Below, one piece after another: positions 12,521-47,320 of a stretch of DNA of 64,000 nt; position 1 is the stretch's first letter, and each line of letters begins with the position of its first letter. The stretch is from Escherichia coli (GTDB taxonomy: Bacteria; Pseudomonadota; Gammaproteobacteria; Enterobacterales; Enterobacteriaceae), in NCBI RefSeq assembly GCF_017348835.2, contig NZ_CP071375.1, one strand, 5' to 3'. The notes beneath the pieces are model-generated. The model saw only the letters and a list, made by a program, of their open reading frames with translations. It did no database searches and was not told the origin of the DNA. The position numbers and the translations under genes are program-made.

Positions 12521-12620
12521 TGCCGGATGCGGCGTTAACGCCTTATCCGACCTACAAAATCGTGCAAATTCAATACATTGCAGGAACCATGTAGGCCTGA
12601 TAAGCGAAGCACATCAGGCA
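12521..12620. repeat. REP elements (BIME-like pair)
   Basis: tgccggatgcggcgttaacgccttatccgacctac and inverted partner gtaggcctgataagcg...catcaggca match the E. coli REP consensus. Confidence 0.5.
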
Positions 12621-19782: not shown

Positions 19783-21057
19783 TTAACCCAGTAACGTGCG
19801 CAAATGCGCGGCTACGCTATCCTGCGCAACTGCCGTTTGCTCACCAGAGCGCAAATCCTTCACTACTGCTGTGCCGTTAGCCACTTCAGACTCACCCAGC
19901 ACCACAGCAACGCGGGCACCCCATTTATCAGCACGGGCAAACTGTTTCTTAAAGTTGCCGCCGCCGTGGTTGGTCATCAATTTCACGCCCGGTAATTCAT
20001 CACGCAGACGCTCAGCTAATGCCATAGCCGCAGATTGTGTATCAGCACCTGAAGCCACCAGGTATATATCGACAACAGGATCGGCTTTAAATTCCGGATT
20101 AACGGCCTGTACTAACAATACAAGACGTTCGAGGCCCATCGCAAAACCGACAGCCGGTGTTGCACGACCGCCCAGTTGTTCCACAAGACCGTCATAACGA
20201 CCGCCTGCACACACGGTGCCCTGGGAGCCGAGACTGTTAGTCACCCACTCGAAAACGGTACGGTTGTAGTAATCCAGACCACGCACCAGACGCTGGTTTA
20301 CGGTGTAAGCGATCCCCGCGCTCTCAAGCAGTTTGCACAGACCGGCAAAATGCTCACGAGATTCCTCGTCCAGATAATCACCTAATGCCGGAGCGTCGTT
20401 GAGAAGCGCCTGCACTTCCGGATTTTTTGAATCCAGCACGCGCAGCGGGTTAGTGTACATGCGGCGTTTGCAGTCTTCGTCCAGCTTTTCTTTATGCTGC
20501 TCAAGGAATGCCACCAGCGCATCGCGGTAATTGGCGCGTGCTTCCAGCGAACCGATAGAGTTCAGCTCAAGAGTTACGTGCTCGGAAATACCCAGCGCGC
20601 GCCACCAGCGGGCAGTGAGCATAATCAGTTCAGCGTCGATATCCGGACCTTGCAGACCGAAAACTTCGCAGCCCAACTGATGGAACTGACGATAACGCCC
20701 TTTCTGCGGACGCTCGTGACGGAACATCGGCCCGATATACCACAGACGCTGTTCCTGATTGTACAGAAGACCATGCTCGATGCCGGCGCGTACACAGCCC
20801 GCCGTCCCTTCAGGGCGCAGAGTCAGGCTGTCGCCATTGCGATCCTCAAAGGTGTACATCTCTTTTTCAACCACGTCGGTGACTTCACCAATCGCACGTT
20901 TGAATAGCGGGGTCTGCTCTACAATCGGCAAGCGGATTTCACTGTAACCGTAGCTGCCGAGCACGTTTTTCAGTGTGCCTTCAATGCGCTGCCAGATGGC
21001 CGTTTCGCCAGGCAGGTAATCGTTCATGCCGCGAATGGCTTGAATGTTTTTTGCCAC
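19783..21057 (-). CDS. hisS: Histidine--tRNA ligase
   Basis: 424-aa [21 protein letters not shown]...; class II aaRS motifs. Confidence 0.95.
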
Positions 21058-21061
21058 GTTT

Positions 21062-21160
21062 ATTCTCTTTCTGAATATAAAAATGAACCCTCAACGCTTC
21101 CCTCAATGTTTCGGGAGCCATGCGGGTTCAATCATACACGGGAAGCGAGGCGCTTCCCAT
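21062..21160 (-). ncRNA. sroE: Candidate SroE-type small RNA in the ispG-hisS intergenic region
   Basis: 110-bp spacer with a stable hairpin (gggaagcgaggcgcttccc); an sRNA is known at this position in E. coli. Boundaries approximate. Confidence 0.3.
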
Positions 21161-21167
21161 CACGTTA

Positions 21168-22286
21168 TTATTTTTCAACCTGCTGAACGTCAATTCGACG
21201 CGCTTCGTCCAGCTGACTGGCTTTCGCACGAATGCGTGCTTCCAGCTGGTCGATCATATCGTTGTTGTCCAGACGGTCTTTGCGCACGCCATCTTCATAG
21301 AGGCCGCTTTTCTTGTTGCCGCCGGTGACGCCGAGTGTAGAAACCAGCGCCTCACCTGGGCCATTCACCACGCAGCCGATAATCGAAACGTCCATCGGAG
21401 TGATGATATCTTCCAGGCGTTGCTCCAGCGCGTTAACCGTACCGATAACATCAAATTCCTGACGCGAACAGGTCGGGCAGGCGATGAAGTTGATCCCTCG
21501 CGAACGGATACGCAGCGATTTCAAAATATCGAAACCGACTTTGATCTCTTCGACCGGATCGGCCGCCAGTGATACGCGCAGCGTGTCGCCGATGCCTTCA
21601 GACAGCAGCAGACCTAAACCAATGGCGGATTTTACTGCCCCGCTGCGCGCGCCACCCGCTTCGGTGATCCCCAGATGCAGCGGCTGATCGATTTGTTTTG
21701 CCAGCAAACGATAAGACTCAACAGCGAGGAAGACGTCAGACGCTTTCACGCTGACTTTGAACTGATCGAAGTTCAGGCGATCGAGATGATCAACATGGCG
21801 CATGGCGGATTCCAGCAACGCCTGCGGCGTCGGTTCGCCATACTTTTCTTGCAGATCTTTTTCCAGCGATCCGGCGTTAACGCCAATACGGATCGGAATG
21901 TTTTTATCGCGCGCACAGTCAACCACCATGCGAATACGCTCTTCATTACCGATATTGCCGGGGTTAATACGCAGACAATCGACGCCGTATTCCGCTACTT
22001 TCAGCGCAATGCGATAGTCGAAGTGGATGTCAGCCACCAGCGGCACGTTAACCCGCTGTTTGATGAGTTTGAACGCTTCTGCCGCGTCCATCGTCGGTAC
22101 GGAGACACGGACGATATCAGCGCCAACGCGTTCCAGCGCCTTGATTTGATTGACCGTTGCTTCGACATCTGTCGTACGCGTATTGGTCATGGACTGTACG
22201 GCGATGGGAGCACCATCGCCAATCGGCACATTCCCAACGTAAATACGTGTTGATTTTCTACGTTGAATTGGAGCCTGGTTATGCAT
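21168..22286 (-). CDS. ispG: 4-hydroxy-3-methylbut-2-enyl diphosphate synthase (flavodoxin)
   Basis: 372-aa [39 protein letters not shown]...; C-terminal Cys ligands CPTC. Confidence 0.95.
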
Positions 22287-38698: not shown

Positions 38699-38994
38699 TG
38701 CTGGTCTGGTTCGCGGCCTTTCCAGCAGGTTGACTTGTGTTGCCGGAGCAACGCAGGCACCCCACAGTGTTGAAATACTCTCTTTTATGCCTGGCTGTGT
38801 CAAGATAATAAACAGAGTAATTATTCAAACATGAGAGTATTATTCTTAATGGCCCTTTTCGCCGTCTCGCAAACGGGCGATGGCTTTAGGAAAGGATGTT
38901 CCATGACCGTAAATACAGGCACCCCACAGTGCTTGCTATCGCGGCAATATCGCCAGTGGTGCTGTCGTGATGCGGTCTTCGCATGGACCGCACA

Positions 38995-39120
38995 ATGAAG
39001 ATACGGTGCTTCTGTATCGTACTTATTGTTTCTGGTGCGCTGTTAACCGAGGTAAATAATAACCTGAGTCTCTCCGGCGACAATTTACTGGTGGTTAACA
39101 ACCTTCAGAGCAGCAAGTAA
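38995..39120 (+). CDS. Small hydrophobic protein, candidate type I toxin (RyfA/TimP-like), copy 1
   Basis: 41-codon ORF MKIRCFCIVLIVSGALLTEVNNNLSLSGDNLLVVNNLQSSK followed directly by a terminator; an in-frame ATG 12 nt upstream is an alternative start. Confidence 0.45.
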   Translation: MKIRCFCIVLIVSGALLTEVNNNLSLSGDNLLVVNNLQSSK

Positions 39121-39152
39121 GCCCGAATGCCGCCCTTTGGGGCGGCATATTT
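39121..39152 (+). terminator. Rho-independent terminator of toxin transcript 1
   Basis: gcccgaatgccgccctttggggcggcat followed by attttag. Confidence 0.5.
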
Positions 39153-39156
39153 TAGA

Positions 39157-39237
39157 TTATCCGATTCTGTTTAAAGTCACGCAAAAAACCACCCCAGCGA
39201 CGTTCATAGAATGGCGCAATATGTTCGATATTAAAAT
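39157..39237 (-). pseudogene. Duplicated 3' fragment of sseB (about 26 codons)
   Basis: Minus-strand translation ...IEHIAPFYERRWGGFLRDFKQNRI* matches the SseB C-terminus; homology to 39830..39907 stops abruptly at 39237. Confidence 0.55.
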
Positions 39238-39351
39238 GACCTGGCTTATTAGTCCGAATTCAGACAAATATAAACAAATCCCGCTCAATATTAAAAATAC
39301 TAACCGGTAAAAGATATTACTTAAACATGTAAATTCACTTTCTTTAAGCAA

Positions 39352-39907
39352 CAAAAAACCGCCAAAATCAGGCGGTTATTTGTTGCCGGTTTGGTTCGCG
39401 GCCTCTCCAGCAGGTTGTATTACCGTAGTAATGCAAGCGCGTCTCAGCGGAGACAATACTCGCCAGTAACTCTCTTTTTGTCAAGTAAAAGAGAGTTATT
39501 ATTGTTCTGTTAGTGTATTATCCACTGCGGCCCTTTCCGCCGTCTCGCAAGCGGGCGCTGGCTTAAGGAAAGGATGTTCCGCGACCGTTAGAGCAAGCGC
39601 GTCTCAGCGCTTGCTATCGCGGCAATATCGCCAGTGGTGCTGTCGTGATGCGGTCTTCGCATGGACCGCACAATGAAGATACGGTGCTTCTGTATCGTAC
39701 TTATTGTTTCTGGTGCGCTGTTAACCGAGGTAAATAATAACCTGAGTCTCTCCGGAAACAATTTACTGGTGGTTAACAACCTTCAGAACAGCAGGTAAGC
39801 CCGAATGCCGCCCTTTGGGGCGGCATATTTTAGATTATCCGGTTCTGTTTAAAGTCACGCAAAAAACCACCCCAGCGACGTTCATAGAACGGCGCAATAT
39901 GTTCGGT
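39352..39907. repeat. Tandem repeat unit 2 of the ryfA-type small-toxin locus (approx. 556 bp)
   Basis: Begins with a terminator-like hairpin aaaaaaccgccaaaatcaggcgg and runs into the real sseB 3' end. Confidence 0.7.
39673..39798 (+). CDS. Small hydrophobic protein, candidate type I toxin (RyfA/TimP-like), copy 2
   Basis: 41-codon ORF MKIRCFCIVLIVSGALLTEVNNNLSLSGNNLLVVNNLQNSR; three substitutions relative to copy 1. Confidence 0.45.
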   Translation: MKIRCFCIVLIVSGALLTEVNNNLSLSGNNLLVVNNLQNSR

Positions 39908-47205: not shown

Positions 47206-47320
47206 TGCTCTATAAACTCCGTACATCACTCAATGCAAGGAACCAGGCTACCGGCTGGATGTACGACCGTGTTTACGGAGCGCGATACGCTCCGGCCTGA
47301 TTCTGAATACTTTTTATCTT

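Follow-up and report, generated by a model that had tools for sequence, protein, structure and literature searches.

The 110-nt spacer between ispG and hisS in the Escherichia coli sequence analysed here (a stretch of 64,000 nt, hereafter the window) is an already known element, annotated as the small RNA gene sroE. The locus is probably a compact junction in which three ordinary signals overlap, and the SroE RNA is then mainly a stable by-product. One signal is a stable hairpin (H1) just after the ispG stop codon, which would cap the ispG message. Another is the hisS promoter, with a putative weak −35 element in H1, a TATGAT box in the linker that follows and a start at G21123. The remaining one is a second hairpin (H2) with its U tract, which is terminator-like and has its 5′ arm upstream of the hisS start. 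The features concerned are given here in window coordinates, which equal those of NC_000913.3 minus 2619518.

19783..21057, minus strand: hisS coding sequence (b2514), with a GTG start (open reading frame list and K-12 annotation)
21055..21069, minus strand: hisS ribosome-binding region AAGAGAAUAAAC with the GTG start codon (21057..21055), conserved as AGAGAA-N5-GTG
21077..21083, minus strand: U tract UUUUUAU, directly 3′ of H2 (from the sequence)
21077..21168, minus strand: sroE small RNA gene (b4761), 92 nt (NC_000913.3 ncRNA 2640595..2640686)
21084..21130, minus strand: hairpin H2, a 7-bp base UGAACCC/GGGUUCA around an interrupted interior
21123, minus strand: G, primary start site of hisS-yfgM-bamB, equal to SroE nt 46 and the first base 3′ of the H2 5′ arm
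21131..21136, minus strand: −10 box TATGAT of the hisS promoter, in the unpaired linker that separates H1 from H2; identical in all 22 aligned Enterobacteriaceae rows
21140..21158, minus strand: hairpin H1, GGGAAGCG-CCU-CGCUUCCC (minimum free energy fold and inverted repeat), with weaker pairs extending to 21133..21164
21155..21160, minus strand: putative weak −35-like hexamer ATGGGA (3/6 matches), 18 nt upstream of the −10 box and overlapping the H1 5′ arm, recognized from the sequence
21168..22286, minus strand: ispG (gcpE) coding sequence (b2515), with its stop codon TAA at 21170..21168 (open reading frame list and K-12 annotation)

The spacer occupies positions 21058..21167 between two open reading frames that are both encoded on the minus strand. 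The surrounding sequence is that of E. coli K-12: 310 nt centred on the spacer are 100% identical to MG1655, and this stretch is present in all but one of 5426 complete E. coli genomes (5425). A 146-nt segment covering the spacer, used as a second query, gave one copy per genome at no less than 95% identity, again in 5425/5426. The initial annotation had placed SroE in this spacer, and the location is borne out: the aligned sequence is identical to the annotated K-12 sroE, the coordinates are the same, and Rfam model RF00371 (sroE) matches over its full length (model positions 1–92 of 92, at 21077–21168 on the minus strand) with 116.6 bits against a gathering score of 51. Between 20900 and 21350, sroE is the sole Rfam family matching at E ≤ 1. 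The sroE gene overlaps ispG by a single nucleotide, the final A of the stop codon TAA. Vogel and colleagues reportedly gave the primary description of SroE in 2003, as a discrete transcript of ~90 nt.

Rfam also matched other RNAs elsewhere in the window. Two full-length ryfA matches at 38849–39153 and 39527–39831 (plus strand; 317 and 311 bits) flank a match to the IS128 RNA at 39185–39395 (plus strand; 227 bits); the ryfA region is tandemly duplicated. The iscR stability element was matched at 47207–47316 (minus strand; 128.9 bits) and the ES036/CssrF sRNA at 12556–12598 (plus strand; 52.4 bits).

The 92-nt SroE folds at −40.1 kcal/mol (z = −4.73), and none of 200 dinucleotide shuffles folds as well. 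Its minimum free energy fold contains two hairpins, H1 (nt 11–29) and H2 (nt 39–85, window 21130..21084). The hairpin string quoted by the initial annotation, gggaagcgaggcgcttccc, is found on the plus strand at 21140–21158 and corresponds to H1, which on the transcribed minus strand reads GGGAAGCGCCUCGCUUCCC and forms an 8-bp stem with a 3-nt loop. That annotation left the transcribed strand unstated, and it missed the larger second hairpin at 21084–21130 with its U tract as well as the hisS start in the middle of sroE. H1 begins nine bases past the ispG stop codon, and its string occurs once in the 64-kb window, against 0 occurrences expected from shuffles. H2 folded alone gives −21.7 kcal/mol (z = −3.79). 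The annotated 3′ end of SroE (21077) lies 7 nt beyond the H2 stem, and the Shine-Dalgarno-like AAGAGAA and the GTG of hisS follow within 20 nt.

The sequence GGGAAGCG occurs twice on the sroE RNA strand, as the H1 5′ arm and again inside H2. The H1 3′ arm, CGCUUCCC, could pair instead with the H2 interior, an attenuator-like alternative that is found in Escherichia only; the segments concerned lie at window positions 21095–21102, 21140–21147 and 21151–21158. It would comprise 8 nt in K-12 and 7 nt in another E. coli and in E. albertii, because of a G-to-C difference at window position 21102. Two small open reading frames were considered and set aside, namely a 10-codon frame in the spacer (AUG-AUU-GAA...) and a 46-codon frame 2 nt past the hisS start site; neither has a ribosome-binding site or is conserved beyond Escherichia and Citrobacter.

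The start at G21123 is supported by two independent datasets, both obtained with methods that select 5′-triphosphate ends. The SMRT-Cappable-seq operon listing places the start of the hisS-yfgM-bamB operon at 2640641, which is window position 21123. TEX-enriched 5′ RACE reported a start at 2638663 in older coordinates, the same base, preceded by ...CCCGTGTATGATTGAACCCG; its authors assigned this start to sroE, 45 nt inside the gene. TATGAT ends 8 nt upstream of the mapped G, within the 6–8 nt expected of a sigma-70 −10 element, and the −35-like position reads TTGGGA in several relatives. A scan of the window for consensus promoters and terminators called neither the hisS promoter nor H2, the former because its −35 element is weak (3/6), the latter because its stem is long and interrupted and its loop exceeds the limit of the scan. 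With the primary hisS start midway along sroE, the 3′ half of SroE doubles as hisS 5′ UTR. The leader made from this promoter (66 nt plus the beginning of hisS) is not unusually structured (z = −0.22).

Other transcripts cross the whole spacer. RegulonDB, as quoted in the SMRT-Cappable-seq listing, has hisS as its own operon, and the same listing reports the read-through variants ispG-hisS-yfgM and rodZ-ispG-hisS. A published primary start inside ispG, at window position 21434 on the minus strand, lies 377 nt upstream of the hisS GTG, and a transcript begun there would cross all of sroE. At the 5′ end of SroE (21168), the TEX-enriched dataset lists no start site and the consensus scan found no promoter-like site upstream; the end is probably processed. 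A candidate promoter picked out by eye inside ispG, TTGACG-17-TAATAA, was rejected: the T that should close its −10 hexamer is missing, the hexamer itself contains the annotated 5′ end, and no start has been mapped there. The Cappable-seq supplements of 2016 hold no entry for the spacer region, and a literature search on ispG or hisS promoters and on an ispG 3′ UTR sRNA yielded nothing useful.

The initial annotation regarded the spacer as consistent with an sRNA derived from a 3′ UTR. The identity of the RNA stands and such an origin is plausible: the 5′ end abuts the ispG stop codon and has no mapped primary start, and rodZ and ispG transcripts cross the spacer. It is limited by the primary hisS start at 21123, mid-sroE, and by curated Term-seq data that list no 3′ end at the 3′ end of SroE.

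As to that 3′ end, H2 followed by UUUUUAU has the form of an intrinsic terminator, a G+C-rich hairpin directly before a U tract. Curated Term-seq data, which cover three growth conditions, list no 3′ end at 2640500–2640799, hence none at SroE nt 92. SMRT-Cappable-seq also selects long RNAs, and none of the operon variants examined from its listing ends between ispG and hisS. Because neither the curated Term-seq data nor these operon variants have a 3′ end here, H2 is not a strong terminator in the tested conditions, in which termination at it is at most partial, and SroE is probably not abundant. Published Term-seq does contain strong RNA 3′ ends inside both flanking genes and none in the spacer; those in hisS are at window positions 20916 and 20765 (minus strand), 141 and 292 nt into the gene, and those in ispG at 21729 and 21561 (minus strand).

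These parts would fit together as follows in the compact junction that we favour. Transcripts from rodZ, ispG or ispG-internal promoters would carry both H1 and H2, and only these could yield SroE. Transcripts from the hisS promoter lack half of H2, because the start lies just past its 5′ arm; they would be unable to form the terminator and would have a short, weakly structured leader of 66 nt. H2 and the U tract may then serve as a partial terminator or as a 3′-protective hairpin that is seen solely by ispG-derived transcripts. A fraction of the read-through RNA would be ended or trimmed 7 nt past H2, and its 5′ end would arise by cleavage within AU-rich sequence at the ispG stop codon, leaving the hairpin-bounded, 92-nt SroE, which would accumulate chiefly as a by-product.

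The pattern of conservation follows the same parts. We compared the hisS loci of 80 species, in all of which (80/80) ispG is directly upstream. Of 23 Enterobacteriaceae species, 19 have an RF00371 hit at gathering score between these two genes; no sampled family outside the Enterobacteriaceae has one. Across 21 Enterobacteriaceae species, column identity is 92–96% in the H1 arms, 57% in the H1 loop, 99% in the linker with TATGAT, 96% in the H2 base arms and 38% in the H2 interior, the least conserved segment; third codon positions of the flanking genes, for comparison, show 62–83% identity. The H2 interior varies in sequence and in length (19–49 nt), yet it always forms a hairpin, and in Enterobacter, with a 19-nt interior, H2 is scored as a canonical terminator. 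The scanned Enterobacteriaceae have a U run of 5–8 nt whose distance to the hisS GTG is 19–23 nt, in most cases 21 nt; the exception is one that has no run of four T. The hisS start is GTG in 75 of the 80 species, including Vibrionaceae, and AGAGAA-N5 precedes it in most Enterobacterales. We infer that most of the strong conservation of sroE is explained by the hisS promoter and the terminator-like hairpin. A covariation test on 22 Enterobacteriaceae spacers gave values no better than shuffles and was uninformative, as neither stem shows more than minimal variation. Selection on H1 as a hairpin is favoured indirectly: the 3′ arm of H1 falls within the promoter spacer, a segment with normally little constraint on its sequence, yet this arm is conserved and the loop is not.

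Outside the Enterobacteriaceae, the spacer is 13–60 nt long in Vibrionaceae, in bee-gut genera (Gilliamella, Schmidhempelia, Zophobihabitans) and in some Erwiniaceae, and mostly 80–150 nt in other Enterobacterales. In 22 species of five other families, from the genera Rahnella, Yersinia, Serratia, Hafnia, Edwardsiella, Brenneria, Pectobacterium, Dickeya, Photorhabdus, Proteus, Morganella, Arsenophonus and Budvicia, a hairpin follows soon after the ispG stop codon and a near-consensus sigma-70 promoter is predicted. The post-ispG hairpin bears a U run in the Photorhabdus/Proteus/Morganella/Arsenophonus group. The predicted promoter is TTGAAn-18-TATAAT in most of these species, usually ~35 nt before the hisS GTG; the corresponding position in Enterobacteriaceae reads GCGYTGAGGG, which suggests that the hisS promoter may have moved during evolution. 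In Rahnella, Serratia plymuthica, Pectobacterium, Dickeya, Hafnia and Edwardsiella, a long-range stem (GAACCCGA/UCGGGUUC, or a shorter one such as CCCGAUU/AAUCGGG) followed by a U run encloses this promoter, and the predicted start falls in the 3′ arm. Thus, as far as can be read from these sequences, a hairpin and U run that only upstream-initiated transcripts could complete appears to recur with the promoter placed differently.

Four spacers carry insertions of ~100–300 nt. These lie in the H1 loop in Pseudocitrobacter, inside H2 in Klebsiella sp. BIGb0407, in the spacer of Yersinia thracica and in Photorhabdus caribbeanensis, where the insertion splits the TATAAT box; the flanking hairpin arms are kept. 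The inserted sequences resemble the enterobacterial ERIC repeat.

A more specific version of the compact junction, which we put forward tentatively as a possibility, is a promoter nested in a terminator, such that the same DNA would stop or process ispG transcripts, releasing SroE, while transcripts from the hisS promoter, lacking one arm of the H2 stem, escape. Such a design would be kept across Enterobacterales despite the shift of the promoter. In Enterobacteriaceae the −10 box is placed just before the H2 5′ arm, and in several Yersiniaceae, Pectobacteriaceae and Hafniaceae species the predicted TTGAAn-18-TATAAT is placed just before the 3′ arm, inside the hairpin.

Other explanations assign the element a regulatory role or a repetitive origin. 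SroE could be an Hfq-dependent trans-acting sRNA from the ispG 3′ UTR, released by RNase E and pairing through the linker GUGUAUGAUU or the H2 loop, an account that we find somewhat unlikely. SroE is among the 26 sRNAs that RIL-seq found associated with Hfq in E. coli starved of nitrogen for 24 h, a reported association that counts against a purely by-product status and fits a regulator better. Its hairpin with a U-rich 3′ end is the kind of module that Hfq usually binds, conservation of the element extends across Enterobacteriaceae, and one study detected SroE under all of its nutrient conditions. However, nine of ten predicted targets failed to bind SroE in vitro and the tenth, ligB mRNA, bound weakly; overexpression gave no biofilm, motility, curli or fimbriae phenotype; and mutation of hfq in Klebsiella changed SroE only −1.75-fold. 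That the linker is invariant can be put down to the −10 box in it, which belongs to a start mapped by experiment, and no curated Term-seq 3′ end is listed for the RNA. Counts of sroE in RNA-seq data do not prove a discrete sRNA, because of the overlap with the hisS 5′ UTR. A trans role of SroE may exist but is unproven. It and the junction model could both hold, as the arrangement of promoter and terminator leaves room for such a role as a further function.

It is improbable that the element is instead a cis-acting hisS leader, a T-box or attenuator that senses tRNA-His charging, as hypothesized by Barquist et al. 2013. The position of sroE, always directly upstream of hisS, is what such a leader would require, as is the resemblance of H2 and its U tract to an attenuator-type terminator, and in Escherichia the H1 3′ arm has its alternative partner inside H2. 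But that pairing is confined to Escherichia, and the main hisS leader starts past the H2 5′ arm, so that it lacks H1 altogether and H2 in part, and it is unstructured; what it does retain of the element is the poorly conserved H2 interior. No T-box or other cis-regulatory Rfam family was matched at E ≤ 1 in 20900–21350 or at gathering score in 60 related loci, and a search for a leader peptide rich in His codons found none. The element was also scored as required in Salmonella transposon libraries, a status that can be put down to disruption of the promoter of the essential hisS. A REP-type repetitive extragenic palindrome is more improbable still. RepRanger, a palindrome-finding tool, lists sroE as containing a REP, and both H1 and H2 are palindromic. 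Against this, there is one copy in the 64-kb window even when 3 mismatches are allowed, and one place per genome in the 5425 E. coli genomes, although short copies that have diverged would escape megablast, which requires an exact 28-nt word match. The position between ispG and hisS is fixed in all Enterobacteriaceae examined, and the true mobile repeats, which are ERIC-like, are separate insertions into the spacer in a few species.

These results bear mainly on how this locus is annotated. An sRNA listed with unknown function in K-12 and in Rfam overlaps the promoter and the 5′ UTR of the essential gene hisS, and the unpaired segment that it conserves best is the −10 box of that gene. Expression of hisS confounds RNA-seq counts of "SroE", its "essentiality" in transposon data and the phenotypes of its deletion. 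Target predictions that take the linker as a seed are suspect, and deletions of sroE must spare the hisS promoter. If the nested arrangement of promoter and terminator is true, the locus would be a neat case in nature of termination governed by the site at which transcription began.

Compared with the entry for sroE (b4761, RF00371), the element described here has the same locus, sequence, coordinates, neighbours and strand; the annotation omits the hisS primary start at nt 46. CpxQ, SroC, SdhX and NarS are processed sRNAs derived from 3′ UTRs. SroE is like them in an annotated 5′ end right after a stop codon with no mapped start site of its own, in an annotated 3′ end at a hairpin and U tract and in its reported Hfq association. 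In contrast to them, it has no validated target, phenotype or curated Term-seq 3′ end; the next gene lies only 20 nt further on in the same orientation, which puts its "terminator" in an operon-like junction, and the unpaired stretch that it conserves is a −10 box, not a proven seed. Like the T-box leaders of aminoacyl-tRNA synthetase genes, sroE is a structured RNA upstream of a synthetase gene with a terminator-like end; unlike them, it does not match the T-box model and the main hisS transcript starts inside it. For E. coli, SMRT-Cappable-seq described "TSS-dependent read-through" at partial intrinsic terminators between co-directional genes. The sroE hairpin and U tract, which are crossed by some transcripts, resemble these terminators, and start-site-dependent behaviour is expected of them. 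In sroE, however, the second start lies inside the terminator-like hairpin itself, and the predicted difference between the two kinds of transcript would follow directly from the lost arm of the stem.
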